Shown here piece by piece: positions 1,902-57,507 of a stretch of DNA of 64,000 bases (within the stretch, counting starts at the first letter, position 1; every line of letters starts with the position of its first letter). Origin of the DNA: Parcubacteria group bacterium (lineage in GTDB: Bacteria > Patescibacteriota > Minisyncoccia > Moranbacterales > UBA9337); NCBI GenBank assembly GCA_041662245.1, contig JBAZSW010000002.1, forward strand, positions 89,017-153,016, given 5' to 3'. A program made the translations under genes and the position numbers. The notes under the pieces are model-generated. The model did no database searches, was not told where the DNA came from, and saw only the letters and a program-made list of their open reading frames with translations.

Positions 1902-1955
1902 TGTTTTTTAAAGAGAAAAAAACCGCCCCGTGGTATAATGGGGGAAGAGAGGAGA

Positions 1956-2257
1956 ATTTAAGATAAATTTTTAATTTTTATATTTTTAATTTTTAAATAA
2001 ATTTTAAAACAAAATTTTTAAACCAATAAAGTATGATCTTGATTGGAATTAAAACATTAAGATTTGAATCAAAATTTTAAATTTAAAGTTTAAAATGAAT
2101 ATAAAAATATTAAATGATTAAAACAGATACAAAATATAATAAGAAAAAGATTGAAATTAAAATTTATTCATTTAAAATTGATTTCAAATTTCAAATTTAG
2201 CCTTTAAAATTAGAGCTATATTTACAAAATTACAAAAATTATAAAATTAAAAATAGG
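1956..2257. repeat. Intergenic AT-rich repeat family A (about 300 bp), copy 1
   Basis: Near-identical copies at 3601-3905, 12823-13052, 14425-14621, 16166-16364, 26860-27096 and 41003-41215, with partials at 4880-5007, 14270-14333 and 25926-26040. Shared core: ...aaagtttaaaatgaatataaaaatattaaatgattaaaacagatacgaaatataataagaaaaagattgaaattaaaatttattcatttaaaattgatttcaaatttcaaatttagcctttaaaattagagctatatttacaaaa... Confidence 0.85.
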
Positions 2258-2279
2258 AAGTATGTCATTAGTCATCGTT

Positions 2280-2333
2280 TATACGATATTATCGTATATT
2301 ATGTTGACAAACTATACGATACTATCGTATAAT
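2280..2333 (+). promoter_or_regulatory. Sigma70-like promoter (TTGACA 2304-2309, 18-bp spacer, TATAAT 2328-2333) bracketed by two 19-bp perfect palindromes
   Basis: TATACGATATTATCGTATA at 2280-2298 and TATACGATACTATCGTATA at 2313-2331 are both perfect inverted repeats. They sit immediately upstream of the ATPase gene at 2360. Confidence 0.6.
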
Positions 2334-2359
2334 TAACGAATAACATATTAAAATTAATT

Positions 2360-3526
2360 ATGAAAGAATTATTGTATCGTTATAATCCATGGTGGGAGGG
2401 GGAGATTGACTTAAAAAATTCCATTTCACGCCCGATTTTTTTTCAAGAAATGCTTGATAATCTGAGAAAACGGCAGATAGTTATCTTGACCGGCCTTCGA
2501 AGAGTTGGTAAAACGACCTTGATGAAACAACTGATACGACACTTGCTTGATGAAAAAAATATCAAAGCCGAGCATATTTTTTATATCAGTCTAGATGATT
2601 ATTTATTAAAGGATAAAAGCATTCTCGAAATAGTTGAGGAATATCGAAAAATTCATCGACTTGCTCATGACAAAAAAGTATTTTTATTTCTGGACGAAAT
2701 AACTTATCAAAAAGACTTTGAAATTCAATTAAAAAATATCTATGATCAGGAAAATGCCAAGGTTTATGTTTCTTCATCCAGTGCTTCTGTTTTAAAAAGC
2801 AAGAAGTCTTTTTTGACCGGTCGAAACTCTCTAATTGAGATTATGCCTCTGAATTTTAAGGAGTATTTGCAATTCAAAAAAATAAAAATTAAAAAAGCTG
2901 ATAAGCATTTGCTGGAAGGCATTTTTGAAGAGTTTATGCAAACTGGCGGAATGCCGGAATATGTCTTGACTGGAGATGTGCAATATTTAAAAGAGTTGGT
3001 CGATGATATCATTCAAAAAGACATTGCGGCACATTATGGCATTAGAGATGTGCAAATTTTAAAAGATTATTTCCTTTTGTTGATGGAAAGATCGGGCAAA
3101 GTTTTGAGTATTAATAAAATTGCCAAAATATTGGATATTTCTCCGGATTCATCAAGACGATATTTAGATATGTTTGTCGATTCATATTTGATATTTTTGG
3201 TATCAAGACATGGCAAAGTAAATGAGCGTTTGCTATCTGCTAAAAAAATATATGCCGCCGATTTGGGAATAAAAACATATTTTTCTGGATTTAGGGATAA
3301 GGGCAGTTTGTTTGAAAATTATGTCTACTTACAAATTAAAAAAAATAATCCTGCTTATATTTATCAAGATGGCAATGAAATTGATTTTATGACTGACAAA
3401 AAAATCCTAATTGAAGTAAAATATAATGCCCAGATGAATGAAAAACAAAATAAACTTTTTGAGAAAATTGTTGCCAAGAAAAAGATTTTGATTAAAAATA
3501 TTTTCGATTTGGATAAATTAAAATAA
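2360..3526 (+). CDS. AAA+ ATPase with C-terminal DUF4143 / PD-(D/E)xK nuclease-like domain (COG1373-type)
   Basis: Walker A motif ILTGLRRVGKTTL; Walker B motif FLFLDEI; C-terminal motif NEIDFMTDKKILIEVKYN (D...E.K). Confidence 0.75.
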   Translation: MKELLYRYNPWWEGEIDLKNSISRPIFFQEMLDNLRKRQIVILTGLRRVGKTTLMKQLIRHLLDEKNIKAEHIFYISLDDYLLKDKSILEIVEEYRKIHRLAHDKKVFLFLDEITYQKDFEIQLKNIYDQENAKVYVSSSSASVLKSKKSFLTGRNSLIEIMPLNFKEYLQFKKIKIKKADKHLLEGIFEEFMQTGGMPEYVLTGDVQYLKELVDDIIQKDIAAHYGIRDVQILKDYFLLLMERSGKVLSINKIAKILDISPDSSRRYLDMFVDSYLIFLVSRHGKVNERLLSAKKIYAADLGIKTYFSGFRDKGSLFENYVYLQIKKNNPAYIYQDGNEIDFMTDKKILIEVKYNAQMNEKQNKLFEKIVAKKKILIKNIFDLDKLK

Positions 3527-3600
3527 ATTCCGACTTAGGGATCGGACCCTCCACAAGTTCATAATCTTTTTATGGTATAATGGAGAGAAGAGAGGAGGAT

Positions 3601-3905
3601 TTAAGATAAATTTTTAATTTTTATATTTTTAATTTTTAAATAAATTTTAAAACAAAATTTTTAAACCAATTAAAGTATGATCTTGATTGGAATTAAAACA
3701 TTAAGATTTGAATCAAAATTTTAAATTTTAAATTTAAAGTTTAAAATGAATATAAAAATATTAAATGATTAAAACAGATACGAAATATAATAAGAAAAAG
3801 ATTAAAATTAAAATTTATTCATTTAAAATTGATTTCAAATTTCAAATTTAGCCTTTAAAATTAGAGCTATATTTACAAAATTACAAAAATTACAAAATTA
3901 AAAAT
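3601..3905. repeat. Repeat family A, copy 2
   Basis: About 97% identical to 1956-2257. Confidence 0.85.
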
Positions 3906-4036
3906 TCTATAAACTGTGATTTAGAAGAGAGATACACAAAATTCGTAGAGACGAAACACTGCTTCGTCTGCATGCTACAAACTAATATTGACAATCTTTT
4001 GGCTCTGAAGATCTCTAAGTTAAATAAATTAAATCT

Positions 4037-4879
4037 ATGACCAATAAAAAAGAAACGATTTTATTCAAGAATGATCCGATTCGTAGGATTTGGGATGAAG
4101 ATAAAGAAAAATGGTATTTTAGCGTGGTGGATGTGATGCGGGTTTTGACAAGTCCGACTGATTTTCAAACAGCTAGAAAATATTGGAATAAACTAAAAGG
4201 ACGTTTGAAAAAAGAAGGAAGCGAGTCGGTGACAAATTGTCACCAACTGAAATTTATAGCTAAGGATGGTAAGTATTATGCTAGTGATGCCGCCGATACG
4301 GAAACATTATTCCGCATCATCCAATCTGTACCATCGCCAAAAGCTGAGCCATTTAAACTTTGGTTGGCCAAAGTCGGTTATGAACGCCTAAAGGAATCGG
4401 TTGATCCGGAGATTGCCCTCAATCGAGCCCGTGAAAATTGGGTTAAAATGGGCAGGTCAAAAAAGTGGATCGAGCAACGCATGCGTGGTCAAGAGATTCG
4501 AAACAAACTGACTGATTATTGGGGTGATCATAAGGTTAGTGAAGAAGAGGAATACGCCAGATTGACGGATATTATTCATAGGGAATGGAGTGGACTAACG
4601 ACTAAAGCTCATAAAAATTTAAAAAGTCTCAAAGGACATAATCTGCGCGATAACATGACCGAGGCGGAATTGGTTTTTACATCGTTGGCAGAATTAACGA
4701 CGAGAAACATTGCGGAAAAAGATAGAGCGGTTGGTTTTGATAAAAATGCTATTTCGGCGAAAAAAGGCGGGGCAGTGGCGGGTCGGGCGAAAGAAGATTT
4801 TGAGTTGCAAACAGGAAAGAAGGTTGTAAGCGGCGAGAATTTTTTAGCACCAACTAAAAAAAAGAAGAAAATAGTATAG
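4037..4879 (+). CDS. Bro-N domain protein (DinD / phage antirepressor-like)
   Basis: N-terminal motif IRRIWDEDKEKWYFSVVDVMRVLT...ARKYWNKLKGRL...SPKAEPFKLWLAKVGYERL is reminiscent of Bro-N / DinD family members. The family name is recalled from memory. Confidence 0.45.
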   Translation: MTNKKETILFKNDPIRRIWDEDKEKWYFSVVDVMRVLTSPTDFQTARKYWNKLKGRLKKEGSESVTNCHQLKFIAKDGKYYASDAADTETLFRIIQSVPSPKAEPFKLWLAKVGYERLKESVDPEIALNRARENWVKMGRSKKWIEQRMRGQEIRNKLTDYWGDHKVSEEEEYARLTDIIHREWSGLTTKAHKNLKSLKGHNLRDNMTEAELVFTSLAELTTRNIAEKDRAVGFDKNAISAKKGGAVAGRAKEDFELQTGKKVVSGENFLAPTKKKKKIV

Positions 4880-5007
4880 AAGAAAGAATGAATTGAAATG
4901 AATTTCGAATTTTGAATCAATTTCTAATTATCTAATGTTTCAAAATTAAAAAATTTAGATTTATTTACAAAATTACAAAAATTAAAAATTACAAAATTAA
5001 AGTTATA

Positions 5008-8000
5008 ATGTCCAAATTTCAAAAACTAATCTTAATATTTTTTTTCATATTAATCGGACTTTCTTCCGCAACTTTCGCGTCGGCCGCGGGGAATGTTTAT
5101 TATTCCGTCGGCCAATCCACCGCTAACCTCATGACGGGCGCGCCCAATGTGGCCATCACGAGTGGCGTGGCTACTTTTGACGTGGCGCAGACTGCCAACA
5201 TTGGCGTGGGGGATGTGATAGTGGCTAATGCCATTTCCTATTATATCGCCTCCAAAACTTCCACCACCGTTTGGAATGTAGTCACCAATACAGGAGCTAC
5301 GCCCACTGACATCACCTCCACTGCGGTCACTTCAGTGAAACACGTTTACACTTCTTTGAATTCGGCGGTGACAGGCGCGTCTACTCTTTTGGGCAGTTCT
5401 GACTTGACGACGGCCGACGTAGTTTTAAATATTCCTTGCTATTATGACTCCGCGGCTGACACGACCGCCGTGACTGTTAGTGGTTACACCACCGATGCGA
5501 CGCGGTATATCAAGATTTACACGCCAAGTAACACCACGACGGAAGCGAACAATTCGCAAAGGCATAGTGGGAAGTGGGATGCGACAAAATATCAATTGGC
5601 AGTATCTGGAAATTCCGCACTATATACGAGCGTCAGTTACACATATATTCAGGGATTGCAAGTGGCTCTTGATATAAGTGTATCTAGCACAAATATAGCG
5701 GGCATATTTTCTGTTAGTACATATGTGAAAATAACCGGAAATATTGTTAAGGCTAACAATACAGGCGTTCCTAGTTATTATAAACAGGGAATTAGAGTTA
5801 CTACCGTCGGAACGGGCGTTGGGGTTTGGAATAATATAATTTATGGATTTCAATATAGCGGGCTGACGTATTATGGTGGAATATCGGCGAACTCCGCTGG
5901 AGCTTATGTGTATAACAATACTGTATATAATAATGGGGGAGGTATCTACATTGCTGCAAATACTTTCGCCAAGAATAATATTTCCTACAATAACTCGTTG
6001 GATTATTATGTAGGTGCTGGTGCATTTGATGCTTCTTCTACTGGTAATCTTTCCAAAGATGCCTCCGCTCCGGCGCTCAACACATATTACAGAAATAAGA
6101 CATTGACTTTCGTCAGCACCATTTCCGGTGGTGAAGATTTTCATTTGGTTCCTGCTGATACGGATGCGATTAACAAAGGAGCGGATTTGAGTGGCGATGC
6201 CAATTTGCCATTCACCACCGACATCGATGGCGCGCCGAGGAATGCTTCGATTAATGCTTGGGACATCGGGGCGGACGAAGCGGCGACGCAGATTTTCCGC
6301 AGTGTCGCTCCGAGTGCCACGGCGGTTTTGGAAAGTGACACTTCGCACGCTCGCACTGTGACACTTACCAGCGGCGTGGCGACTTTTAGCAATGCTCTCT
6401 CTGACACCATCGGGGTGGGGGACGCGGTGCTGATCGACACGGGCGGCACGGATCAAGCGATTGATGCTTCAGACACATTATTATTCATCAGTGGTCGTAA
6501 TTCTTCTACCAGCTACAACCTACAAACTAATAATGGTTCTGTACCCAGTAACATTGCCAGCAACGATACTTATCAAATCTATCGCGCTTACACTTCCATC
6601 GCTAACGCCGAGGAGGGAACCAAAAACACCTCCATCCCTATCGCTTTCAATGGCGGCAATCGCAATATTTTCACCAACAATGAACAATGGAACATCGCGT
6701 GTTATGCCAATGGGACCACGGCGGATGCCAGGGCGGTAGTCAGCGGTTGGACAACGGGTACGAATAATTATATCAAAATCTATACTCCCGTGAATTTGAC
6801 CGAAGTGGGCACGAGCCAAAGGCATGCTGGCAAATGGGATGACAGTAAGTATAAGATGGAGATCAATGCTAATTTTTATATTTATGCAGCCAATACTAGA
6901 TTTGACGGAATCCAGATCAAGGGCAGTGGCAGTGAAGATGTCATCAGTTATGATAATTTCAATTCTTCCGGCGGAGAACAGGTCGTGTCCAATTCGATTA
7001 TCCGCGGAGGCACGCGCGGTATCGCTGGAGTGCGCGCTAATACAAAAATTAGGATTTACAACAATATCATCTATACGATGGCCAATGCTGGATTGTATCC
7101 TTGTCCTACCGATTCCTTTTGCTATATGTATAACAATACATTATACAATACAGGAACATATGGCATTTATACCAACGGTGGTACAGCCATTGCCAAGAAT
7201 AACATCGTCTATGGTGCTGGTAATTTTAACACCTATGCTGGGACTTTTTCGGTCGGGACGGATAACAACGCGACTGACAGCACGGATGCGATTGGACAAG
7301 GCTCCAATAACAGAATCAGCCAAACTTTCTCTTTCGTTTCCACCGTGAGTGGCTCGGAAGACTTCCATCTCCAGTCGACTGATGCCGGCGCGCGAAATTA
7401 TGGCGCGGATATGAGCGCGGATGTTAATTTTGCTTTTGCCACCGATATCGACGGCGCGTCGAGAAATGCGAGCATTAACGCGTGGGATATCGGGGCGGAT
7501 GAAACCGCTACCCAGATTTTCAGAAGTGTCGGACCCAGTGCTACGGCGGTGCTCGAAAGTGATACATCGCATGCTAGAACAGTGACTCTTACTAGTGGAG
7601 TGGCGACTTTTAGTAATGCTCTCTCTGACACCATCGGGGTGGGGGACGCTGTCATCATCGACACGGGTGGCACGGATCAAACCATTGATGCTAGTGATAC
7701 GATATTATTTATCAGCAGCAGAAATAGTGCTACCAGCTACCAGCTACAAGCTAACAACGGCTCCGTACCCAGTAACATTACTATCAATGACACTTACCAA
7801 ATTTACCGCGCCTACACCAGTTTGAGTTTGGCGGAAGCGGGGACGAAGAATGCGAGCATTCCGATGACTTTTAATGGTGGTGATCGCGATTTGGTGGCGA
7901 ATAATGAGCAGTGGAATCTAGCGTGTTATGCCAATGGAACGACGGCGGATACGACTGCAGTGACAGTGAGTGGCTGGATCACTGCACAACAGGATTTTAT

Positions 8001-11000
8001 TAAAATTTACACGCCAGTAACCACGACCGAAGTGGGAACGAGTCAAAGGCATAATGGTAAGTGGGATGATGGGAAGTATAGATTGGAATATACTGGCAGT
8101 TTCGCCACAACATTAGATTCTGCAGTGATGGATATTTGGGTGGACGGATTGCAAATAAAAAGAGTGACTACTCAAAATTATGGAAATATTATAGCCTTAC
8201 GCGTTATTTCCAGAAGTAAAGTTAGCAATAACATAGTTAATTTTGTTGATACTTATACCAATTCAACTAAAGCAATATCCAATGTGTCTTCAGATGGAAG
8301 TCCGAGTTATTTTTGGAATAATATAATGTATGGAACTAGTTTGGACTATGGATACTATCAGGCAGATGCTTATGGCTATGTGTATAATAATACTGTTTCT
8401 GGTGCTGGAGATGTTGGTTATTTTTCTGGTTTTCAATTGAGAATGTTTGTTAAAAATAATATTGCTCAAAATTGTGTGGATGGATTTTTGGCTTCAAGCG
8501 GAAATTTTGGTGTTGGTTCGGATTATAATATTTCTGATTTGAGTGCCGACGCTCCCGGAGCTAATTCCAAAAATTCTACCACCGTCGCTTTTGCTGACTC
8601 CGCCAACAAAGACTTTCACCTCGCCCCCACTGACACCGCCGCCAAAAATTCCGGCGTGGATTTGAGTACGGATGCTAATTTGCCAATCACCACCGATATT
8701 GATGGCCAAACTAGAAGTGCCACCCCCAGCTGGGATATCGGCGCGGATGAAGCGGCCAATGCTGTGTACTATAGTGTCGGTCAATCCACCGCGGACTTGA
8801 AAACTGGCACGCCTAATGTCGCCATCACCAGTGGCGTGGCCACTTTTGACGCGGCGCAGACTGGGAACATCGGGGTGGGGGACGTCATGATTGCTAATGC
8901 CATCTCATATTACATATCAAGCAAAACCTCCACCACCGTTTGGAATGTGGTGACCAATACGGGCGCCACTCCCGCCAACATCACTTCCACGGCCGTCACT
9001 TCCATCAAACATGTTTACACTTCTTTGAACTCCTCCGCCTCCGGTGCGGGCACGCTCTTGGGCACGACTGATTTATATACCAATAATTATCAAATTAATC
9101 TGCCTTGTTATTACGACTCCGCGGCGGACACGGCGGCCGTTACCGTGAGTGGTTACACGACTGCGGTGCCCAATTACATTAAGATTTACACGCCGAATAA
9201 TACTTCTACGGAAGCCAATAATTCGCAACGGCATGGGGAAAAATATGACATTACAAAATATCGACTTGAAGTAACTGACGCGAACGGATTGGCATTGACA
9301 GGAGTTGATACTAAAATAATTGGCCTCCAGATTAAATTGACTGCAACAACTAGCTGGAGATCGGCAATTGCCCATGGTATTAATTATAGAGGCAACATTG
9401 AAATAGCAAATAATATCATAAAAGGTGTTTTAACAGGTAATATAACAGATTTTGGTCTATGGATAAAAAGAAACAATGTAAATACGAAAATATATAACAA
9501 TGTTATTTATGGTTTCAAGAGTGATTTGACTGCCTCTTGCGCTGGAATGTGGTTTGGTTTTGAAGGAGGAGTCGGGTCGTCAATTAAGAATGTTTTTAAC
9601 AATACATTTTATGGAAATTATTATGGTTTGAACTCCATGGATGGCGGTGTTACTGTAGTGGCGAAGAATAATATTTCTTATAATAATCCATATAAAGACT
9701 ATAATGGTACTTTTGATGCTTCCTCCACCAACAACATTTCCAAAGATACCACGGCGCCGCCCTATAACACCTATTACACCAACAAAACCTTGTCTTTTGT
9801 CAGTACCATTTCCGGTGCAGAAGATTTTCATTTGGCCTTCACGGATACGGACGCCCTCAACAAGGGAGTAGATCTGTCGGCTGACACTAGTTTCGCTTTC
9901 ACCACCGACATCGACGGCCAAACCAGAAATCAAAACAGTCTCGGGTGGGACATTGGGGTCGACGAAGCAGCCACCCAGATTTTCTATTCCGTCGGACAAA
10001 ACACATCTGATCACAAAACTGGTTTGCCAACCGTGACAGTCAGCGGTACGACCGCCACTTTCAGTGTGGCACAAACAGCGACCAATATGGGCGTGGGGGA
10101 TCTGGTGACTTATACAGGTGGAATATGTTACCTGAGCGCCAAAACTTCCACCACTGTTTGGAGTTGTATATCTGCGACGGGTGGAACGCCGACCGCCGCC
10201 ACCAACGCCACTGTCACCAGCATCGCGCATGCGTTTGCGTCATTGAGTGCGGCAATGTCTGGGTCAGGTCCCGGAGCCAGCAATTCATCTCATCTTAATA
10301 CTACTAACTTAGTAACAAATAATTATCAACTCAACATTCCTTGCTATTATGACAGTGGGGCAGATACTACAAGAGGCAATGTATATGGCTTTACTACTGG
10401 TGCCAATAATTATATTCGCCTTTATACTCCGAATAATGTGGCAGCAGAAGTGAATCTTAGCCAACGGCATCAAGGCAAATGGGATGATGCAAAGTATCGT
10501 TTTGAATATACTGCCACAGGCAGTTCTGATTATGCCCTATATATACAAGAACCATATATCAAGATTGACGGATTACAAATCAAAAGTTCAGATGGTGGAT
10601 ATGGCTATAGCGCTGGCATTGGTATAAATAGCGTATATAGCATTACTAGCAGCAATTTAGAAATATCAAACAACATTATTAAGGCCGGAACGCTTACAAA
10701 CGCCACCGTTGCCGCTGCGGGCATTGGCAACTATTCTGGTGGAAAAAGTTTGATTTATAATAATGTCATTTACGGTTTTAATGTTGATGGATCAAGTACG
10801 AAGGGAAGGGGGTTGCATATTCGAGGAAGTGCCTATGTTTATAATAATACTTTTTATGATTGTTATCATGGTATTTATAATTATGATGGAACTGCTTATG
10901 CTAAAAATAACATCGTACAAAGTGCTACCGATGGCTATGCAGGATCATTCACTTCTTCCGATTACAACATTTCCAACCTTGCGGCTGATGCTCCGTCAGC

Positions 11001-12540
11001 TTCATATCGAAGTGGCCTTGCGACAACTGCTGCTTTTGCGGATGTGGGCAACAAAGATTTTCATCTCGCCAATTCCGACACCGCCGCGCAAGGCAAGGGG
11101 GTGAATCTGACAACTGACACCAATTTACCTTTCAACGTTGACATTGATAGCGAGCAGCGCGGAACCTATTGGTCGATCGGGGCGGACGAGCCAATCGGAG
11201 TCAACGTGCAAACACCACCAGCAACTAGTCCTAACCTCGGCATCAATTCTGGCCTCGTCGGTTATTGGTCGATGGATGGTCAGACAATCTCCGGCACGAC
11301 CGTGAAAGATTTATCCGGCAACAATAATAACGGCACCAACAATGGTGCGGCGCAAGCGGTCGGCAAAAGAGGACAAGCGTTATCGTTCAATGGGACGAGT
11401 GATTATTTGGATGTGGGGAGTATTGCTATGGCAGACAATACTTCTTGGGCGGTTTCTACATGGTTTTATCCCACAGGTTCGAGCTATCAAGCCCTAGTCG
11501 GGAATACATATACTAGTAGTAGCTATGGAAGAATTCAGATAAGATACAACGATTTGTACATGTTTTATAATGATGCCAATGGTGGCATAAATTGGAATGT
11601 TGGAAGCGGAATGCCTTCAAATACTTGGCATCATGCAATTATAATTTGCAATGGAACAGATTCGAATAATCTAGAATTATATTTGGATGGTGTTTCTCTG
11701 GGCTATAAGACTTTGGCAGATTCTGGTTGGACTGCTAAATATTTGGGAAAATCAGGAAGTAGTAGCTATTGGAGCGGAGCTATGGACGAAGTTCGCGTCT
11801 ATAACCGCGCAATTTCAGCGGATGAAGTCGGACAGCTTTATCGGACGGGAGAAGAAAAATTGCAAACTTCGCAGACAGACAAAATGACCAATGGCTTGGT
11901 GGGGATGTGGAGTTTTGATGGGGCGGACATTTCCGGTACGACCGCCTATGACCGCAGCGGACAAGGCAACAATGGAACGATCAATGGTGTCACGCCGGCG
12001 ATTGGAAAGCGTGGCCAGGCTTTGAATTTCAATGGGACAAGTGATTATGTCAATATTAGTAGCACCCCGACTATCCTCGAAGGGAAAACGGCCTTTACGA
12101 TAAACTTTTGGGCCAAGAGCAGTGTGGCCTTGCCGGTATCGAAAGGAATATTTTCTAACATGGTAAATACTAATCAGCTTGTATCCGATTGTTCTGTTCT
12201 GGCAAATGATAATTATTTATTTAGAGTTTATGACGACACGGGAGTATCAAGTAGTTTTCAATTAGATGGGAGTGATATTTTTCCGGATACCAATTGGCAT
12301 TACATTTCTAATGTTTTTAGCAATGGATTAGCTTCTGTCTATGTCGATGGAGTGTATAAAGGCATATCTTCAACGACTATCGGAGCCAGTCGGAGTGGCG
12401 GTGTTACAAAAGCTTTTCGTTTAGGGAATGGCCAAGGTTATTGGAACGGAGCGCTTGATGAATTTCGCATCTATGACCGCGCGCTTTCTGCAGATGAAAT
12501 TAAAAATTTGTATGATATGGGACAGGCGGCGGTGAAATAG
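5008..12540 (+). CDS. Giant secreted modular protein (2510 aa): signal peptide, 5 beta-sandwich/beta-helix modules, 2 C-terminal LamG-like lectin domains
   Basis: Signal peptide MSKFQKLILIFFFILIGLSSATFASAAG. Modules end in EDFHL...DLS.D.N..F.TDIDG..R...WDIGADE and contain N-ladder beta-helix turns (NNIIYG, YNNTxYN, AKNNI). C-terminal LamG hallmarks are LVGYWSMDG...FNGTSDY...DEVRVYNRAIS..EV.QLY and a second copy. Confidence 0.85.
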   Translation: MSKFQKLILIFFFILIGLSSATFASAAGNVYYSVGQSTANLMTGAPNVAITSGVATFDVAQTANIGVGDVIVANAISYYIASKTSTTVWNVVTNTGATPTDITSTAVTSVKHVYTSLNSAVTGASTLLGSSDLTTADVVLNIPCYYDSAADTTAVTVSGYTTDATRYIKIYTPSNTTTEANNSQRHSGKWDATKYQLAVSGNSALYTSVSYTYIQGLQVALDISVSSTNIAGIFSVSTYVKITGNIVKANNTGVPSYYKQGIRVTTVGTGVGVWNNIIYGFQYSGLTYYGGISANSAGAYVYNNTVYNNGGGIYIAANTFAKNNISYNNSLDYYVGAGAFDASSTGNLSKDASAPALNTYYRNKTLTFVSTISGGEDFHLVPADTDAINKGADLSGDANLPFTTDIDGAPRNASINAWDIGADEAATQIFRSVAPSATAVLESDTSHARTVTLTSGVATFSNALSDTIGVGDAVLIDTGGTDQAIDASDTLLFISGRNSSTSYNLQTNNGSVPSNIASNDTYQIYRAYTSIANAEEGTKNTSIPIAFNGGNRNIFTNNEQWNIACYANGTTADARAVVSGWTTGTNNYIKIYTPVNLTEVGTSQRHAGKWDDSKYKMEINANFYIYAANTRFDGIQIKGSGSEDVISYDNFNSSGGEQVVSNSIIRGGTRGIAGVRANTKIRIYNNIIYTMANAGLYPCPTDSFCYMYNNTLYNTGTYGIYTNGGTAIAKNNIVYGAGNFNTYAGTFSVGTDNNATDSTDAIGQGSNNRISQTFSFVSTVSGSEDFHLQSTDAGARNYGADMSADVNFAFATDIDGASRNASINAWDIGADETATQIFRSVGPSATAVLESDTSHARTVTLTSGVATFSNALSDTIGVGDAVIIDTGGTDQTIDASDTILFISSRNSATSYQLQANNGSVPSNITINDTYQIYRAYTSLSLAEAGTKNASIPMTFNGGDRDLVANNEQWNLACYANGTTADTTAVTVSGWITAQQDFIKIYTPVTTTEVGTSQRHNGKWDDGKYRLEYTGSFATTLDSAVMDIWVDGLQIKRVTTQNYGNIIALRVISRSKVSNNIVNFVDTYTNSTKAISNVSSDGSPSYFWNNIMYGTSLDYGYYQADAYGYVYNNTVSGAGDVGYFSGFQLRMFVKNNIAQNCVDGFLASSGNFGVGSDYNISDLSADAPGANSKNSTTVAFADSANKDFHLAPTDTAAKNSGVDLSTDANLPITTDIDGQTRSATPSWDIGADEAANAVYYSVGQSTADLKTGTPNVAITSGVATFDAAQTGNIGVGDVMIANAISYYISSKTSTTVWNVVTNTGATPANITSTAVTSIKHVYTSLNSSASGAGTLLGTTDLYTNNYQINLPCYYDSAADTAAVTVSGYTTAVPNYIKIYTPNNTSTEANNSQRHGEKYDITKYRLEVTDANGLALTGVDTKIIGLQIKLTATTSWRSAIAHGINYRGNIEIANNIIKGVLTGNITDFGLWIKRNNVNTKIYNNVIYGFKSDLTASCAGMWFGFEGGVGSSIKNVFNNTFYGNYYGLNSMDGGVTVVAKNNISYNNPYKDYNGTFDASSTNNISKDTTAPPYNTYYTNKTLSFVSTISGAEDFHLAFTDTDALNKGVDLSADTSFAFTTDIDGQTRNQNSLGWDIGVDEAATQIFYSVGQNTSDHKTGLPTVTVSGTTATFSVAQTATNMGVGDLVTYTGGICYLSAKTSTTVWSCISATGGTPTAATNATVTSIAHAFASLSAAMSGSGPGASNSSHLNTTNLVTNNYQLNIPCYYDSGADTTRGNVYGFTTGANNYIRLYTPNNVAAEVNLSQRHQGKWDDAKYRFEYTATGSSDYALYIQEPYIKIDGLQIKSSDGGYGYSAGIGINSVYSITSSNLEISNNIIKAGTLTNATVAAAGIGNYSGGKSLIYNNVIYGFNVDGSSTKGRGLHIRGSAYVYNNTFYDCYHGIYNYDGTAYAKNNIVQSATDGYAGSFTSSDYNISNLAADAPSASYRSGLATTAAFADVGNKDFHLANSDTAAQGKGVNLTTDTNLPFNVDIDSEQRGTYWSIGADEPIGVNVQTPPATSPNLGINSGLVGYWSMDGQTISGTTVKDLSGNNNNGTNNGAAQAVGKRGQALSFNGTSDYLDVGSIAMADNTSWAVSTWFYPTGSSYQALVGNTYTSSSYGRIQIRYNDLYMFYNDANGGINWNVGSGMPSNTWHHAIIICNGTDSNNLELYLDGVSLGYKTLADSGWTAKYLGKSGSSSYWSGAMDEVRVYNRAISADEVGQLYRTGEEKLQTSQTDKMTNGLVGMWSFDGADISGTTAYDRSGQGNNGTINGVTPAIGKRGQALNFNGTSDYVNISSTPTILEGKTAFTINFWAKSSVALPVSKGIFSNMVNTNQLVSDCSVLANDNYLFRVYDDTGVSSSFQLDGSDIFPDTNWHYISNVFSNGLASVYVDGVYKGISSTTIGASRSGGVTKAFRLGNGQGYWNGALDEFRIYDRALSADEIKNLYDMGQAAVK

Positions 12541-12675
12541 AATGGACATTCGATGTCGAAAATCTTTTTATGGTATAATGGGGGAAGAGAGGAGGATTTG
12601 AAATAAATTTCGAATTTTGAATTTCGAATTTTGAATCAATTTCGAATGAATAAATGATAAGAAATGTTTCCTCTT

Positions 12676-12750
12676 GTCATTTCGACCGAATAAATATTTG
12701 TACTCAAATATTTAGAAGTGGAGACCTGCCTGCCGGCAGACAGGAATCTT
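12676..12750. repeat. Intergenic repeat family B (long form with GC palindrome CCTGCCTGCCGGCAGACAGG)
   Basis: The unit gtcatttcgaccgaataaatatttgtactcaaatatttagaagtggagacctgcctgccggcagacaggaatctt recurs at 16074-16148. Short forms lacking the GC hairpin are at 14343-14400 and 41224-41280. A partial copy is at 40931-40990. The unit contains a perfect AT hairpin AAATATTTG-TACT-CAAATATTT. Confidence 0.8.
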
Positions 12751-12822
12751 AGATGAATCAGAGATATAAGATGAATTTCGAATTTTGAATTTTGAATTTC
12801 GAATCAATTTCTAATTATCTAA

Positions 12823-13052
12823 TGTTTCAAAATTAAAACATTAAGATTTGAATCAAAATTTTAAATTTCAAATTTAAAGTTTAAAATGAATAAAAAAATA
12901 TTAAATGATTAAAACAGATACGAAATATAATAAGAAAAAGATTGAAATTAAAATTTATTCATTTAAAATTGATTTCAAATTTCAAATTTAGCCTTTAAAA
13001 TTAGAGCTATATTTACAAAAATTAAAAATTCTAAAAATTACAAAATTAAAGT
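12823..13052. repeat. Repeat family A, copy 3
   Basis: Sequence identity to the other A copies. Confidence 0.8.
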
Positions 13053-13097
13053 TATGAAGATGTTGCTATTGACTAATGTCATAATTTAGTATAAAAT

Positions 13098-13113
13098 TGA
13101 TATTATAATATCA
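13098..13113. promoter_or_regulatory. 16-bp perfect palindrome TGATATTATAATATCA (contains a TATAAT hexamer) 16 bp upstream of the ATPase start
   Basis: Perfect inverted repeat seen directly in the sequence. Confidence 0.5.
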
Positions 13114-13128
13114 TAATTAAATAAAAAT

Positions 13129-14262
13129 ATGTCATTTTATCCGAGAATAATTAAAGAAAGTATTGAAAAAAGCCTTTTTAAGGGTAAGGTTATTATTATT
13201 TATGGTGCTAGGCAAGTCGGAAAAACTACATTATCCAAGGAAATCCTGAAAAAATATGAAGGCAAAAGCACTTTTTTTAACTGTGAACTTTTGTCAGTCA
13301 AACAAAGTTTGGAAGTCCAAGAAGCCGCATCCTTAAAAGATTTTTTGGGAGATAATAGGCTGATCGTTTTGGATGAAGCGCAAAATGTTGCAAATGTAGG
13401 TCGGATTCTAAAAATAATGGTTGACACTTATCCCGAAATTCAAATAATCGCGACAGGATCTTCAAGCTTTGATCTGGCCAATAAAACCAGTGAACCTTTG
13501 ACCGGTAGAGCCATTCGTTTCACGCTCAGCCCATTGTCATTGGAAGAAATAAAAAACAAGACTAACGCAGTAGAATTGAATGCCCAGTTGGAAAACATTA
13601 TGCGATTTGGGACATATCCGGAGGTCTTTTTTTCGGCGGAAGAAAGTGCCAAGGATAAGCTGGATGAAATTGTTTCCAATTATCTGTATAAAGATGTCTT
13701 GATGCTGGATGGCATAAAAAAACCGGCAATTATCATAAAACTTCTCCAATTGTTGGCACTACAACTTGGCAATGAAGTTTCCTACAATGAATTGGCAACT
13801 TCGCTAGGGATAAATAGGCTCACCGTGGAAAAATATATCGATTTATTGGAAAAATGTTTTGTTATTTTTACCTTGAGAGCTTTGAGTCGCAATATGAGAA
13901 AAGAAATTTCGAAATCCGTGAAAATATATTTTTATGATTTGGGCATTAGGAACAGCTTGATACAGAATTATAATCTGTTGGAGATGCGCAATGATATCGG
14001 TGCTCTGTGGGAAAATTTGATGATTGTGGAAAAAATAAAGAAGAATAGTTATCATAAGATCTATGCTAATCTTTATTTCTGGCGCACTTATGACCAGAAA
14101 GAAATAGATTTAATAGAGGAACGGGACGGAAAATTTTTTGCCTATGAATTTAAGTGGAAAAAAGATAAGACTAAAGAGCCAAGGGACTTTTTGAGCAATT
14201 ATGCTAATTCTGAATTTGAAGTTGTTAACAGAGAAAATTATGGGAAGTTTTTGTTTGAGTGA
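13129..14262 (+). CDS. AAA+ ATPase with C-terminal PD-(D/E)xK-like domain (paralog 2)
   Basis: Walker A motif IIYGARQVGKTTL; Walker B motif VLDEAQ; C-terminal motif KEIDLIEERDGKFFAYEFKWKKD. Confidence 0.75.
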   Translation: MSFYPRIIKESIEKSLFKGKVIIIYGARQVGKTTLSKEILKKYEGKSTFFNCELLSVKQSLEVQEAASLKDFLGDNRLIVLDEAQNVANVGRILKIMVDTYPEIQIIATGSSSFDLANKTSEPLTGRAIRFTLSPLSLEEIKNKTNAVELNAQLENIMRFGTYPEVFFSAEESAKDKLDEIVSNYLYKDVLMLDGIKKPAIIIKLLQLLALQLGNEVSYNELATSLGINRLTVEKYIDLLEKCFVIFTLRALSRNMRKEISKSVKIYFYDLGIRNSLIQNYNLLEMRNDIGALWENLMIVEKIKKNSYHKIYANLYFWRTYDQKEIDLIEERDGKFFAYEFKWKKDKTKEPRDFLSNYANSEFEVVNRENYGKFLFE

Positions 14263-14621
14263 TGAGATAAGTTTTAAATTTAAAGTTTAAAATGAATATA
14301 AAAATATTAAATGATTAAAACAGATACAAAATATTTCCCCATGTCATTTCGACCGAATAAATATTTGTACTCAAATATTTAGAAGTGGAGAAATCTCAGA
14401 TGAATGATAAAATCTTAAGATAATTTTAAATTTCAAATTTAAAGTTTAAAATGAATATAAAAATATTAAATGATTAAAACAGATACGAAATATAATAAAA
14501 AAAAGATTGAAATTAAAATTTATTTATTTAAAATTGATTTCAAATTTCAAATTTAGTCTTTAAAACTAGAGCTATATTTACAAAAATTAAAAATTCTAAA
14601 AATTACAAAATTAAAGTTATA

Positions 14622-14714
14622 ATGTCCAAATTTCAAAAACTATTATTAATCCTAGTATTTACGATAATCGGACTTTCTTCCGCAACTTTCGCGTCGGCAG
14701 CATCTAATGTATAA
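14622..14714 (+). pseudogene. Orphan 30-codon stub of a giant-gene 5' end (promoter-proximal repeat plus signal peptide MSKFQKLLLILVFTIIGLSSATFASAASNV, then a stop)
   Basis: The upstream A repeat and the first 84 nt are near-identical to the starts of the genes at 16365 and 27097. The reading frame ends at TAA 14712-14714. Confidence 0.7.
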
Positions 14715-14761
14715 TATATATGATACCCAAAGCAAGTTTGATTTTACAACTAAGCTGATAA

Positions 14762-14797
14762 GTACAGATTGACTTTTTTTTATTAAATCTGTACTAT
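14762..14797 (+). promoter_or_regulatory. Promoter TTGACT (14769-14774), 17-bp spacer, TACTAT (14792-14797), embedded in the inverted repeat GTACAGAT...ATCTGTAC
   Basis: The inverted repeat 14762-14769 / 14787-14794 overlaps both promoter hexamers. The ATG of the next gene is at 14824. Confidence 0.5.
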
Positions 14798-14823
14798 AAA
14801 GACATAATCAATAAAAATACCGT

Positions 14824-15999
14824 ATGTATATAAAAAGACAAGCTGAAGATACAATTTTGAAACTATTGAAGAAATATCCCGCAGTCGCTCTTGTTGGTCC
14901 GCGACAATCTGGTAAATCAACTATTGCCAAAAATATATTGAAAAATTATCCTTATTACTCGCTAGAGGACTTGGATGAGCGTGAATTTGCTACTTCTGAT
15001 CCACGTGGCTTTCTGGAGCGTTTTAAAAATGGCGGAATAATAGATGAAATTCAAAAAGTGCCAGAATTAATCTCGTATCTGCAATCATTTTTGGATAATA
15101 AAAAAAATAAAAGTCCTATTATTTTGACTGGATCAGCCCAATTGACATTGTTGTCCAATATCAGTCAAACTTTGTCTGGCAGGGTGGCTATAATTGAATT
15201 GTTGCCTTTGGCTTATGTTGAAATAAAAAAAATGTCAGTGGCTCCGAAGTCATTAGAAAAATTATTTCATACAGGCTTATATCCAAAATTATATAAAGAA
15301 AAGATTAATCCTAATGATTGGTATTACGATTATGTTAAAACATACCTGGAAAGAGATGTCAGAGATATTTTGAAAGTGCATAATCTTGGAACATTTCAAA
15401 AATTTCTTAAAATGTGCGCTTCACGTGCCGGACAAATTTTGAATTTTTCATCACTGGCCAATGATTGTGGCATATCTCATTCTACTGCTGAGTCGTGGTT
15501 CAATATTCTTGAAGCGACATATATTGTAATTCGCATCCAACCGCATCATCAAAATTTTTCCAAGAGATTAATCAAATCGCCTAAACTGTATTTTTATGAT
15601 ACCGGTCTTTTGTGTTTTCTTTTGGGGATCAGTTCGGCTGATGACTTAAAAACTCATTCTTTTCGTGGAGCGATAATGGAGAATTGGGTGGCGAATGAAA
15701 TTGTAAAATCGAAATGTAACGCTCACAAACCAAATGGCATATATTTTTGGCGTGACAATAAGGGTATTGAGATTGATTTTGTAATGGAGCAAGGAACGAA
15801 ATTATATCCAATTGAAGTCAAATCAGGCAAAACTATAAATACGGATTATTTCAAAAATATTTTATACTGGTCGAAATTGGCTGGAAACAAGGCCAAGAAT
15901 GGAGCAGTGGTTTATGCGGGAAATGAAAATCAAACCAGAACAGATTTTGAGATTTATGGATGGAAATCTATAGATAACTTAATTGAGAGGATGATTTAG
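14824..15999 (+). CDS. AAA+ ATPase with C-terminal PD-(D/E)xK-like domain (paralog 3)
   Basis: Walker A motif ALVGPRQSGKSTI; Walker B motif IIDEIQ; C-terminal motif GIEIDFVMEQGTKLYPIEVKSGKT. Confidence 0.75.
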   Translation: MYIKRQAEDTILKLLKKYPAVALVGPRQSGKSTIAKNILKNYPYYSLEDLDEREFATSDPRGFLERFKNGGIIDEIQKVPELISYLQSFLDNKKNKSPIILTGSAQLTLLSNISQTLSGRVAIIELLPLAYVEIKKMSVAPKSLEKLFHTGLYPKLYKEKINPNDWYYDYVKTYLERDVRDILKVHNLGTFQKFLKMCASRAGQILNFSSLANDCGISHSTAESWFNILEATYIVIRIQPHHQNFSKRLIKSPKLYFYDTGLLCFLLGISSADDLKTHSFRGAIMENWVANEIVKSKCNAHKPNGIYFWRDNKGIEIDFVMEQGTKLYPIEVKSGKTINTDYFKNILYWSKLAGNKAKNGAVVYAGNENQTRTDFEIYGWKSIDNLIERMI

Positions 16000-16073
16000 G
16001 ATGAATTTCGAATTTTGAATTTCGAATTTTGAATCAATTTCAAATGAATAAATGATAAGAAATGTTTCCTCTT

Positions 16074-16148
16074 GTCATTTCGACCGAATAAATATTTGTA
16101 CTCAAATATTTAGAAGTGGAGACCTGCCTGCCGGCAGACAGGAATCTC
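16074..16148. repeat. Repeat family B (long form)
   Basis: Identical to 12676-12750. Confidence 0.8.
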
Positions 16149-16165
16149 AGATGAATGATAAAATC

Positions 16166-16364
16166 TTAAGATAAATTTTGAATTTTAAATTTAAAGTTTA
16201 AAATGAATATAAAAATATTAAATGATTAAAACAGATACGAAATATAATAAAAAAAAGATTGAAATTAAAATTTATTCATTTAAAATTGATTTCAAATTTC
16301 AAATTTAGCCTTTAAAATTAGAGCTATATTTACAAAAATTAAAAATTACAAAATTAAATTCATA
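16166..16364. repeat. Repeat family A, copy 5
   Basis: Sequence identity to the other A copies. Confidence 0.8.
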
Positions 16365-19300
16365 ATGTCCAAATTTCAAAAACTATTATTAATCCTAGTA
16401 TTCACGATAATCGGACTTTCTTCCGCAACTTTCGCGTCGGCAGCTAGTAATGTTTATTACAGTGTCGGGCAATCCACGGCTGACCTCAAAAACGGCACGC
16501 CTAATGTTTCCATCACTTCTGGCGTGGCGACTTTGAGCGTGGCGCAGACGGGCAATATCGGAGTCGGGGATGTCATCGTAGCTAATGCGATCTCGTATTA
16601 CATTTCCAGCAGAAGTTCGCAAAGTGTTTGGAATGTGGTTACCAATACGGGAGCTACGCCGACCAACATCACTTCCACGGCGGTCACTTCCATCAAACAC
16701 GTCTATCCCTCGCTCAGTGCGGCGGTGACGGGGGCGAGCACTCTCTTGGGCAGTTCTAATTTGACGACGGCTGACGTAGTCTTAAACATTCTTTGCTATT
16801 ACGATTCCGGTGCCGACACGACCGCGGTCACCGTTAGCGGTTACACCACCGATGCGACAAGATATATCAAGATTTACACACCGAGTAACACTTCAACGGA
16901 AGCGAACAATTCGCAGCGGCATAGTGGGAAGTGGGATGCGAGCAAATATAGGTTGGAAGTTAGTGCAGCCACGGCACTGTCTAATAGTAATTTGTATACG
17001 GTTATTGAAGGTTTGCAGATATATGAAACTCCAAATGCTCACGATCAATCGGCGATATATTCCACGACCAGCAGTACGATCAAAGGCAATATTTGTAAAG
17101 GAGATGCGACTAACTCGACTTATCGACAACATGGGATAAACATACTTTCCACTAATGGAAATACCATATATATCGAAAATAATGTTGTGTATAATTTTTC
17201 AAGGATTTATTCTAGCGGGATACTGATGAACTCAGGGTATCCAATTTTTTATGCTTTGAATAATACGGTTTATAACAATTATAACGGTATATATAATAGT
17301 GGAGTAGATACGGCAAAATATATCAAGAACAATATCTCGATGGGAAGCAGCGGGTTCAATTTTGCGGGTACATTCGATTCGAATGCGAGCAATAATGTTT
17401 CATACGATGCCACAGCTCCCGGCACGGGTTCTCTGACCAATCAATCGTTGGCACAAGTCGCATTCATTTCAACCGTTTCTGGGAATGAAGATTTTCATCT
17501 CCAACCTAGTTCGGTAGCGAAGAATATTGGCGTGGATCTGTCGAGTTATTTCACCACTGACATTGATGGCGCTACCAGAAATACCGCCATCAATGCGTGG
17601 GACATCGGGGCGGATGAGGCGGCTACGCAGATTTTCCGTAGCGTCGGACCATCGGCTACGGCGGTTTTGGAAAGTGACACATCGCACGCTCGTACTGTAA
17701 CACTTACCAGCGGCGTGGCCACTTTCAGTGCGGCACTGGCCGACAACATCGGCGTAGGGGATGCTGTTTTGATTGACACCGGTGGCACAGATCAAACCAT
17801 TGATGCGTCAGACACGATATTATTCATCAGCAGCAGAAATAGTGCTACCAGTTACACCCTACAAGCTAATAATGGCTCTGTACCCAGCGACATCGCTGTT
17901 AATGATACATACAGCATTTATCGCGCTTACACTAGTTTAAGTTTAGCCGAAGCGGGGACGAAAAATACTTCTATTCCGATAACTTTCAATGGGGGCAATC
18001 GTGATTTAGCTACCAACAATGAGCAATGGAATTTGGCTTGTTATGCCAATGGAACGACGGCCGATACAACCGCAGCTAGGATTGACAGTTGGACGACCGA
18101 CACTACGCGTTTCATCAAAATTTATACTCCCGTAACCACCGCTGAAGTGGGTATTTCCCAACGGCACAGCGGGAAATGGGATACGAGCAAATATCGCTTA
18201 GAAACGGGAACGGGCGCTTCATCTCTTAGAGTAACTCAAAATTATACCGTGGTTCAAGGACTGCAGGTATATAATTCTAGCACGGTTAATGAAGAAAATG
18301 GGATATCCCTAGATGCCTATCGCAATCATATGACGGCTAGAGATAATATTGTAAAGGGTGGATATACAGGAATAAGTACTGGTTCACAATCTTCGTCAGA
18401 CGGAAATAATTATATCATAAATAATATTGTATATGGGGCATATAGAACAGGTATAAATGCAAATAATCCTGTTTCTACCAATCCTAATTTTGTTTATAAC
18501 AATTCAGTTTCGGGGTGCAATGTGGGAGTGGTTGAGTATGGGTATGGAATAACGGCTTCAGCGGAAGGTATAGTTGAAAATAACATCAGTATCAATCTTG
18601 GCGGTTATGGTACTTATAAAAAAGATTTTGCCGCTACAATACAAAGCTATAACATTTCCCAAGACACTTCCGCGACGGGCACAGGATCTTTGACCGGCAA
18701 GACCAACACAGATGTAAAATTTGTGAGCATCATCTCTGGTGCAGAAGAGTTGCATTTGCAAGCCGGTTCGGTAGCAAAAAACGTCGGTGCCGACCTGTCC
18801 GGCACTTTCACCACCGACATCGACGGTCAGACTAGAAGTGCGAGCCTGGGGTGGGACATCGGGGCGGATGAAGCGGCCAATGCGGTGTATTATAGTGTCG
18901 GACAATCCACGGCCAACCTTATGACAGGGACGCCGAACGTCGCCATCACTGCAGGCGTCGCCACTTTTGATGTGGCGCAAACTGGAAACATCGGGGTGGG
19001 GGACGTGATTGTGGCTAATGCGATCTCCTATTACATCGCCTCCAAAACTTCGACCACTGTTTGGAATGTGGTGACGGTGACAGGCGCCACGCCGACTGAC
19101 ATCACTTCCACCGCCGTCACTTCCATTAAACATGTTTACACTTCACTTAACTCGGCGGCTGCAGGCGCAGGCACGCTTTTGGGCACAACTGATTTATATA
19201 CCAATAATTATCAAATTAACATCCCGTGCTATTACGACTCTGCCGCCGACACGACCGCCGTGACTATTAGCGGTTATACCACCGCTATGCCCAATTATAT

Positions 19301-25925: not shown

Positions 25926-26167
25926 GGATGAATTTTTAATTTTTACATTTTTAATTTTTAAATAATGCTCAAATTTCTAATTTTTCAAAATTAAAACATT
26001 TAGATTTATTTATAAAATTACAAAAATTACAAAATTAAAAATTCTACAAGCTGTGATTTAAAAGAGAGATGCGCAAAGTAGCCGATGACTGTTGATTGAT
26101 GATGAATTACTCATCTTTTATGATATAATGAAATAGTAAATCAATAATAATTTAACTTAAAAAATCT

Positions 26168-26736: not shown

Positions 26737-26835
26737 AACACTCAATAACCAATACTCATTCAATATCCGATAAATTAACATTCAATTGAACATTTTGATA
26801 GTGATTATTGAATGAATATTGAGTATTTAATATAA
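26737..26835. repeat. Palindromic AT-rich element, family C
   Basis: Large imperfect inverted repeat (...aatactcattcaata... / ...tattgaatgaatattgagtatt...). Related copies are at 57508-57625, 58845-58950, 60349-60410 and 60790-60850. Confidence 0.65.
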
Positions 26836-27096
26836 CAATGAAGCAGTGGGATTCTGATAATAATTTTTAATTTTTATATTTTTAATTTTTAAATAATGCT
26901 CAAATTTCTAATTTTTAAAAATTAAGAATTCAGATTTATTTATAAAATTACAAAAATTACAAAATTAAAAATTCTATAAACTGTGATTTAGAAGAGAGAT
27001 GCACAAAATTTGTAGAGTCTGCATATTGCAAAATTAAAAAATTCAGATTTATTTACAAAAATTAAAAATTCTAAAAATTACAAAATTAAATTCATA

Positions 27097-57504: not shown

Positions 57505-57507
57505 ATA

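Follow-up and report, generated by a model that had tools for sequence, protein, structure and literature searches.

Mosaic intergenic cassettes with promoter-like and hairpin modules in a Candidatus Moranbacteria genome

Introduction

Genomes of the Candidate Phyla Radiation (CPR) are small, so a CPR chromosome in which 13% of the DNA is intergenic and full of near-identical repeats calls for an explanation. Here we analyse such a case, a 64,000-nt stretch of contig JBAZSW010000002.1 (assembly GCA_041662245.1, positions 89,017 to 153,016 of the forward strand; hereafter, the window), in which AT-rich repeats separate a series of ATPase genes and giant genes. What are these repeats, and why are their copies so alike? 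The original prediction, made from the sequence alone, described a composite unit upstream of every giant and ATPase gene and suggested a transcribed non-coding RNA, a long structured leader or a regulatory module shared by the array. Our analysis favours, with a probability of roughly one half, mosaic intergenic "punctuation" cassettes that are copied by recombination and carry promoter-like and hairpin modules. We saw no sign of these cassettes outside this genome in a search of limited reach.

The genome is a Candidatus Moranbacteria metagenome-assembled genome (MAG) built from short reads, and its RpoA is 92% identical to that of a Candidatus Moraniibacteriota MAG (JAVEXR010000034). The window carries infA, rpmJ, rpsK, rpsM, rpoA and aminoacyl-tRNA synthetase genes, and thus represents a cellular chromosome and not a T4-like phage. 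Its GC content is 38% overall and drops to 14-22% in the spacers. All long open reading frames (ORFs) treated as genes lie on the + strand. The genes between the repeats code for an FG-GAP protein, four AAA_14/DUF4143 ATPases (ATPase1 to ATPase4, the last starting at 39636), a Bro-N protein, a 187-aa protein and three giant LamG/beta-helix proteins (giant1, giant2 and giant3, starting at 5008, 16365 and 27097, respectively).

Results

The module that we call A is present in six copies with 95-99% pairwise identity and in two partial copies, all of them on the + strand. Copy 1 (2047-2254) and copy 2 (3691-3905) belong to a 333-nt direct repeat (1931-2254 versus 3573-3905, 95.8% identity) that also includes the M motif and the C module described below and brackets ATPase1. 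The tail of copy 3 (12831-13055) stops where the ATG of a giant gene would sit. A partial copy spanning the first ~63 nt of A (14272-14334) begins 9 nt past the stop codon of ATPase2, copy 4 (14422-14620) precedes 30 codons from the N-terminus of a giant gene (a fragment at 14622-14714), and copy 5 (16173-16364) abuts the ATG of giant2. Copy 6 (41011-41159), which is 3'-truncated and lies beyond the range originally described, is followed by a second, partial A start (41153-41207). The core of A measures 142 nt and shows 8 variable sites and not a single indel across the six copies. Thus, the repeats are real, but the unit does not precede every giant and ATPase gene as first proposed. The A core is absent upstream of giant1 and giant3, where just its last ~40-60 nt (the tail) are found, and nothing of the kind lies upstream of ATPase4.

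The conservation of the unit had been considered far higher than a promoter needs. This argument does not survive, as the copies are paralogs within one genome that differ at 8 of 142 sites (1-3% between the copies around the ATPases), whereas the four ATPases are mutually only 23-29% identical. Hence, the identity of A reflects recent copying or gene conversion and not long-term purifying selection. To judge from these divergences, A spread or was homogenised long after the ATPase genes diverged, and independently of them.

Copying was not confined to A. Shared blocks are collinear and cross module borders, and the points at which similarity ends vary from copy to copy. Besides the M-C-A repeat, a block formed by the F module, the B hairpin element and a GC palindrome is shared by 12606-12758 and 16004-16156 (153 nt, 98.7%), a block of B, palindrome and A by 16087-16322 and 40929-41159 (236 nt, 95.3%), and a block of B and A by 14329-14701 and 16060-16444 (394 nt, 89.6%); the latter includes 78 nt of giant-gene coding sequence. 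Moreover, alignments and folds revealed no terminal inverted repeats in A, and its copies have neither common boundaries nor short target-site duplications, each ending at its own point. These features indicate segmental copying by recombination or gene conversion, and not a discrete transposon.

The same data bear on the possibility that A, and perhaps other AT-rich modules, is a non-autonomous element akin to miniature inverted-repeat transposable elements (MITEs) or repetitive extragenic palindromic (REP) sequences, which an enzyme encoded in another part of the genome would recently have moved into AT-rich spacers. The near-identical and strictly intergenic copies of A would fit such an element, as would their independence from the divergence of the neighbouring genes and the fact that B is itself a member of a repeat family that is dispersed without regard to orientation. 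The distribution of A is also compatible with a recent arrival. We did not find A in the loci fetched from relatives (each of at most 21 kb), an A-core 34-mer gave no match in exact-word scans of GTDB representative genomes and JGI metagenomes, and a 22-mer from A gave none in an exact-word scan of IMG/VR. Likewise, no A-like sequence was seen upstream of homologues of the giant N-terminus (at most 59% identity) in other contigs. However, A has no terminal inverted repeats and no common boundary on either side; similarity instead continues into adjacent modules and even into coding sequence, as segmental copying predicts. In addition, none of the 18 window proteins scanned against Pfam matched a transposase, integrase, recombinase or REP-associated tyrosine transposase (RAYT) family. 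On balance, we regard a mobile A element as unlikely. A 71% match between A and positions 18622-18788 of locus L018 was set aside as compositional because it is AT-rich and of low complexity, with no specific core in common.

In a short-read MAG, repeats of 200-330 nt with 95-99% identity could also be collapsed or mis-joined into an array that only looks regular. Logan unitigs, which come from an independent second assembly, indeed break exactly at the repeats. On the other hand, the two unitigs that bear junctions reproduce the window exactly. The copies also differ in specific substitutions, indels and module composition, and each junction between unique and repeated sequence is therefore distinct. 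An array created wholly by assembly is highly improbable.

A further property of the repeats is that they bracket genes. The longest collinear repeats (199-435 nt) flank ATPase1, ATPase2 and ATPase3, that is, three of the four ATPases. The ATPase1 cassette (2255-3572, + strand), enclosed by the M-C-A repeats, comprises a promoter-like site (2304-2333), the gene (2360-3526) and a short 3' tail; the remaining ATPase cassettes span 13056-14271 (ATPase2), 14717-15999 (ATPase3) and 39499-40913 (ATPase4). Bracketing extends to other genes, namely the 187-aa gene, which lies within a 147-nt direct repeat (25931-26077 versus 26862-27007, 93.9%), rpsM, which lies within a 106-nt direct repeat containing TTGACA (42716-42821 versus 43290-43395, 93.4%), and, more weakly, giant1. 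It is thus a general property of the spacers and not the footprint of ATPase insertion alone. Repeat modules are shared among 19 of the 27 intergenic regions of the window, including spacers of the ribosomal-protein operon, and they begin 0-47 nt past stop codons. The suggestion of a regulatory module shared by the array is plausible at the level of sequence, given the promoter-like M and A modules and the 5' cassette of the giant genes, but the modules are not specific to the array. As a separate observation, rpsM normally belongs to a single operon, and its flanking repeat may mean that each ribosomal-protein gene has a promoter-like cassette of its own.

The bracketing of ATPases raises the alternative that the repeats are by-products of the insertion of DUF4143 ATPase cassettes, each insertion duplicating tens to hundreds of bases of its target. 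Several findings speak for it. Apart from the three bracketed ATPases and the giant-gene fragment just upstream of ATPase3, two sets of relatives show a related arrangement. In loci L082 and L083, an ortholog of ATPase2 (88% identity) sits between another ATPase and trmD. Only a 60-nt promoter-proximal region is common to these loci and the window at this gene, with no A, B or M, and the two ATPases, themselves unrelated, are flanked by directly repeated copies of a dockerin gene's 3' end (64-115 nt, 83% identity). In two other Moranbacteria (L207 and L209), an orthologous DUF4143 ATPase between rpoC and ftsK is flanked by 29-31-nt direct repeats that resemble the ftsK promoter (5794-5824 and 7153-7183 in L207; 5796-5824 and 7155-7183 in L209). 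These repeats are identical or nearly so within each genome and differ between the two, which suggests concerted evolution or repeated insertion. Still, the 187-aa gene, rpsM and giant1 are bracketed in the same way, whereas ATPase4 and a homologue in locus L205 have no flanking repeat, and inspection by eye revealed no junction motif in common at the cassette ends. The ATPase of L207 and L209 is syntenic in two species and not obviously mobile, and only a handful of loci stand behind the pattern. We know of no mechanism that yields target duplications of such variable length. Insertion of ATPase cassettes is thus an improbable origin for the repeats, on a par with a mobile A element.

With regard to the dockerin repeats, three copies of the 3' end of the dockerin-type gene in L082 (7877-8019, 9679-9821 and 11349-11440) alternate with the two unrelated DUF4143 ATPase genes. 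The relative closest to our genome (L008) has a LamG gene directly followed by the infA promoter and lacks ATPase4, B, A and the hairpin element X described below; where it has nothing, the window has 2.1 kb comprising ATPase4, the truncated B copy, A copy 6 and X. Part of the repertoire seems to be older. AT-palindromic modules (41910-42000 and the related 12781-12882) are 80-93% conserved and present in several copies in two relatives' loci (L002 and L004), and for this reason we consider them the older fraction.

The spacers also carry promoter-like signals. As originally reported, motif M (TGGTATAATGG..GAAGAGAGGAGG) lies downstream of three genes, at 1931-1955, 3573-3598 and 12571-12595 on the + strand. 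These starts are 30, 47 and 31 nt past the stop codons of the FG-GAP gene, ATPase1 and giant1, respectively, and no copy is expected in the window by chance. Copy 1 shows an extended -10 element (TGGTATAAT) followed by a purine-rich run (GGGGGAAGAGAGGAGA); copy 2 carries one inserted base and one further change. The extended -10 of M is perfect and stands downstream of a T-rich stretch, and the motif resembles a promoter-like site (TTGACA..tttttgTGGTATAAT) at 61179-61204, upstream of the gene at 61240. M is thus a plausible outward-reading extended -10 promoter. It was found neither in an exact-word scan of IMG/VR nor in 210 fetched loci. A itself contains TTGAAA-16-TAAAAT in five of its six copies (copy 2 has TTAAAA). 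Furthermore, a separate promoter-like site, such as TTGACA-18-TATAAT at 2304-2333, stands between A and the start codon of each ATPase gene. A Shine-Dalgarno-like motif precedes none of 31 start codons, and for this reason the GGAGG of M does not ordinarily serve to bind ribosomes. An unstructured A/U-rich sequence formed by A and its tail would suit initiation that does not depend on a Shine-Dalgarno element.

If M were the start of a non-coding RNA, or of a long structured leader made up of C, B and A that regulates the downstream genes, as first envisaged, some structure would be expected in these modules. The extended -10 motif of M is a good one, the six A cores are free of indels, and the part that contains B folds somewhat better than its shuffled versions (z -2.44). 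Nevertheless, on neither strand is the fold of A more stable than that of shuffled sequence (z -1.25 and +0.96), and the same holds for the leader formed by M and C (z 0.17). An Rfam search of the window with gathering thresholds matched a tRNA and nothing else, and an E-value search of 40800-41700 returned only noise. Three of the six A copies have no M upstream, the ATPases have promoter-like sites downstream of A, and A was found neither beside the ATPase2 ortholog nor in the loci fetched from other relatives. Altogether, these data make an RNA or leader function quite unlikely, clearly more so than the two origins weighed above. The original prediction had also looked to covariation among the A and B copies. 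We detected it in B only, as a member of a cosmopolitan family without orientation bias; A offers just 8 variable sites.

Nor does A appear to encode a protein. All six copies keep intact, within the indel-free core, a 28-codon ORF (MIKTDTKYNKKKIEIKIYSFKIDFKFQI) preceded by an overlapping 8-codon ORF, and this organism needs no Shine-Dalgarno site to translate it. However, ORFs of at least 28 codons arise in ~10% of shuffled A sequences (193/2000), the four substitutions are split into two synonymous and two non-synonymous ones, and the alternating pattern of residues stems from AAATTT-like repeats in the DNA. The small ORF is indistinguishable from chance, and a coding role has the slightest likelihood of all the alternatives that we weighed. 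DNA curvature was likewise rejected as a property of A, as autocorrelation of A-tracts and periodograms gave no clear 10-11-bp phasing.

The remaining modules complete the mosaic. C is an AT-rich spacer after M (1956-2046, second copy at 3599-3690), and 35-nt pieces of it recur at 25931-25965 and 26862-26896. F is an AT-rich module of the (TTTCGAATTTTGAA)n type that comes right after M or a stop codon (12596-12673, with other copies at 12771-12830, 16000-16071 and 4893-4962). The stretch 12772-12876, made up of the second F copy and C', folds into a long imperfect AT hairpin of ~45 bp. The second shared motif of the original prediction, here called T, was recovered before three genes (3903-3940, 26040-26077 and 26970-27007, + strand) as a 45-nt motif. 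The shared stretch of T reaches 3950, after which the copy at 3903 has an extra ~16-nt hairpin (~3950-3965) that is lacking in the copy at 26970. Finally, the giant genes share a 5' cassette (-40 to +80) made of ~40 nt of A tail and ~80 nt of signal-peptide codons. It is common to all three giants and one gene fragment, with 77-100% identity (4968-5087, 14582-14701, 16325-16444 and 27057-27176, + strand). Beyond +80, the identity of giant3 to the other giants drops to background.

In contrast to A, B belongs to a cosmopolitan covarying hairpin family represented in metagenome and phage contigs. As reported, its AT hairpin occurs with and without a GC palindrome, and the full tally is four complete copies and one 5'-truncated copy, all on the + strand, three of the five bearing the palindrome. 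The copies at 12675-12758 and 16073-16156 have the palindrome at 12725-12744 (20 nt, inside the 3' arm) and 16123-16142, respectively; the truncated one (40927-40994) has a shortened palindrome (40965-40980), and the copies at 14342-14398 and 41223-41279 have none. The family consensus is TGTCAT(Y)(K)CGA(G/C)-variable hairpin-GTGG(N)(R)ATC. A pattern derived from the B copies of the window and B-like copies in loci L004 and L005 matched contigs in JGI metagenomes and in IMG/VR (at least 120 in each), and the metagenome contigs span 28-68% GC. Across 307 instances, the 5-bp outer helix covaries near-perfectly (ATTGC/GCAAT in 221, ATCGC/GCGAT in 22, ATTTC/GAAAT in 20 and ATCTC/GAGAT in 11). The latter two pairs are invariably associated with the GAC..GTGGA subtype, to which window B, with its ATTTC/GAAAT helix, conforms. 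The copies occur in arrays and convergent pairs, and their orientation is unbiased with respect to the flanking ORFs. A covariance model (R1) built from 25 metagenome instances and no window sequence scores the copies at 14342 and 41223 at 46.1 bits each (E 3.6e-7). Those at 12675 and 16073 score just 19.8 bits because the palindrome splits their 3' arm.

The B unit at 41223-41279 is part of a larger element, X (41223-41395), which lies just upstream of the infA promoter. There, the + strand unit faces a probable enlarged B-type unit on the - strand, with its head at 41395-41384 and its tail at 41299-41286. Paired with each other, the two heads close the element with a 12-bp stem (TGTCATTTCGAC / GTCGAGATGACA) around GC-rich inner hairpins, and the whole ~173-nt element, with a fold z of -3.4, looks like two B-type units placed face to face.

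Two observations concern the nature of the B hairpin. Its GAC/GTGGA subtype fits a k-turn-like RNA consensus. The central hairpin of the family is variable and often ends in a C-GNA-G triloop, which instead suggests hairpins in single-stranded DNA, where GNA triloops closed by C-G are very stable. No Rfam family was matched in seven loci rich in B-family copies, and literature searches with B-family strings found no paper quoting the sequence, only chance primer matches. When translated, these repeats yield spurious ORFs that are common in many genomes, and the family may therefore be known under another name. With textbook covariation in hundreds of metagenome and phage contigs, a wide GC range and no Rfam family, it merits a study of its own.

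Small GC-rich palindromes or hairpins appear to be optional insertions in the AT-rich modules, present in one copy and not in its twin. Besides those in B and T, they lie at 41875-41908 in the window, at ~1834-1849 in L004 and at ~11690-11640 (- strand) in L005. A CCTG.CTGCC..GGCAG.CAGG type of palindrome recurs within a B-like hairpin of L005.

Some further features of the window were noted in passing. Relatives with 87-92% RpoA identity keep the infA promoter and leader (41451-41624) at 87-95% identity, and blocks such as GCATTAGGAATGAAA and AACTCCTCTATTTTTGT are still present in those with ~70% RpoA identity; a consensus fold of this conserved leader gave no structural signal. Its CUCCUCU is complementary to the AGAGGAG of M, which may be a coincidence. 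About six 33-nt units (atagaatatagaaacatgatctatcacgtctaa) are repeated in tandem at 53200-53400, upstream of a gene for an ABC-transporter ATPase, and several tRNA-like 3'-half fragments with ggttcgaa-type T-arms accompany the single intact tRNA-Thr (61009-61082) at 60860-61120 on the - strand. Unusually long spacers (846 nt at 56809-57654 and 615 nt at 58831-59445) separate the genes for the subunits of pyruvate:ferredoxin oxidoreductase. They carry another palindromic repeat family, also seen at 26743-26833 and 60791-60841, which matches a copy in L005 with 83% identity.

Discussion

Which process could have produced these spacers? In the explanation that we favour, a spacer would open, directly behind the stop codon, with F or C, an AT-rich and in part palindromic stretch that sometimes hosts the REP-like hairpin B, itself sometimes carrying a GC palindrome. 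The 190-nt A module would come next, followed by a promoter-proximal tail leading into the following start codon, and at the front of three spacers M would act as an outward-reading extended -10 promoter. Blocks of 150-430 nt would be copied between spacers through homologous or illegitimate recombination and gene conversion, and such copying would leave copies 95-99% identical even though the intervening genes have no relationship or only an ancient one. The modules may provide the signals at which transcription starts, possibly also those at which it stops, together with a leader that is A/U-rich and unstructured, in an organism that does without Shine-Dalgarno sites. From their sequence and layout, we infer promoter and terminator activity as well as a recombination-driven shuffling of cassettes. 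The repeated homology would permit single-gene cassettes, such as those of the DUF4143 ATPases, the Bro-N gene and the 187-aa gene, to be gained, lost or moved within a region of variable surface proteins. If so, uncultured episymbionts would have a simple route to vary their giant surface proteins and to acquire ATPase genes.

Several points weigh against this explanation and keep its probability near one half. Promoter-like hexamers are barely enriched in the AT-rich DNA (74 found versus 59.9 +/- 6.8 expected), and the hairpins of F2/C', B and the GC palindromes lack the T-run of classical intrinsic terminators. The cassette model leaves the purine-rich half of M (GGGGGAAGAGAGGAGG) without an explanation. 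The scans of GTDB representatives and JGI metagenomes demanded an exact 34-mer, so that A copies below ~92% identity elsewhere would escape them. Moreover, the order of cassettes between repeats of 200-330 nt could be partly mis-assembled in a short-read MAG, and neither a recombination intermediate nor a strain polymorphism was directly observed at an A boundary.

Intergenic or upstream repeats with some of these features are known from other systems. In the vsp, vlp and vsa families of mycoplasmas, the upstream region and the signal-peptide codons are near-identical while the rest of the genes is divergent, which recalls the 5' cassette shared by the giant genes from -40 to +80. Unlike in these families, the signal peptide of the giants has no lipoprotein cysteine, the genes all lie on one strand without inverted copies, and the scanned proteins include no recombinase match. 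The alignment of A also shows no length-variable homopolymer tract between the -35 and -10 hexamers.

With regard to REP and REPIN elements, B resembles them in being a short, dispersed hairpin with conserved flanks that occurs in either orientation and in convergent pairs (as in X) or arrays. REPs are lineage-specific, whereas the flanks of the B family (TGTCAT..CGAG/C ... GTGG..ATC) stay the same across phage contigs and contigs with a GC content of 28-68%. Furthermore, no associated Y1 (RAYT) transposase was found among the 18 scanned proteins, and the fit of one B subtype to a k-turn-like RNA consensus is another difference. At a larger scale, the bacterial interspersed mosaic elements (BIMEs) of enterobacteria and the BOX elements of Streptococcus pneumoniae are extragenic modular mosaics in which a palindromic unit and short motifs are arranged variably, in many copies and in a species-specific manner. 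The repeats of the window are likewise extragenic mosaics of a palindromic unit and other motifs. However, no sequence relationship to BIMEs or BOX was seen, the non-palindromic 190-nt A module has no counterpart in them, and the copies are large segmental blocks instead of short units of fixed architecture, with no RAYT seen.

The closest functional analogues are the promoter early stem loop (PeSL) cassettes of T4-like phages, which combine a stop codon, an AT-rich region, a sigma-70 promoter and a stem-loop, and lie beside variable genes (Arbiol et al. 2010, PMC2839356; Comeau et al. 2014, PMC4122927). Recombination between PeSL copies explains indels and gene replacement, and yields mini-circles (PMC2839356, PMC4122927). 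The units of the window are similarly repeated, composite and AT-rich, start at the upstream stop codon and include a stem-loop. They carry predicted matches to the sigma-70 consensus (TGGTATAAT in M and TTGAAA-16-TAAAAT in A), lie near genes that are variable or of unknown function, and have all their copies in one orientation. The direct repeats that bracket genes would allow recombination of the PeSL type. In contrast to PeSLs, the window is part of a cellular CPR genome; its units are longer (200-590 nt), comprise several modules, show no sequence relationship and have no Shine-Dalgarno element, and their hairpins are AT-rich or of the B family and not polyG/polyC. Thus, the window units are not members of the PeSL group, but they may work alike. 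A bolder form of this idea, which we put forward only tentatively and with much less confidence than the cassette model itself, is that a cellular CPR genome would host a system for gene shuffling of the PeSL type. Cassettes after every stop codon would then supply both expression signals and the homology for excising and re-inserting single-gene cassettes through circular intermediates. The moved cassettes would include DUF4143 ATPases and surface-protein gene fragments, allowing rapid remodelling of the cell-surface and putative defence genes of an episymbiont. In this case, a mechanism so far described in T4-like phages would be extended to cellular genomes.

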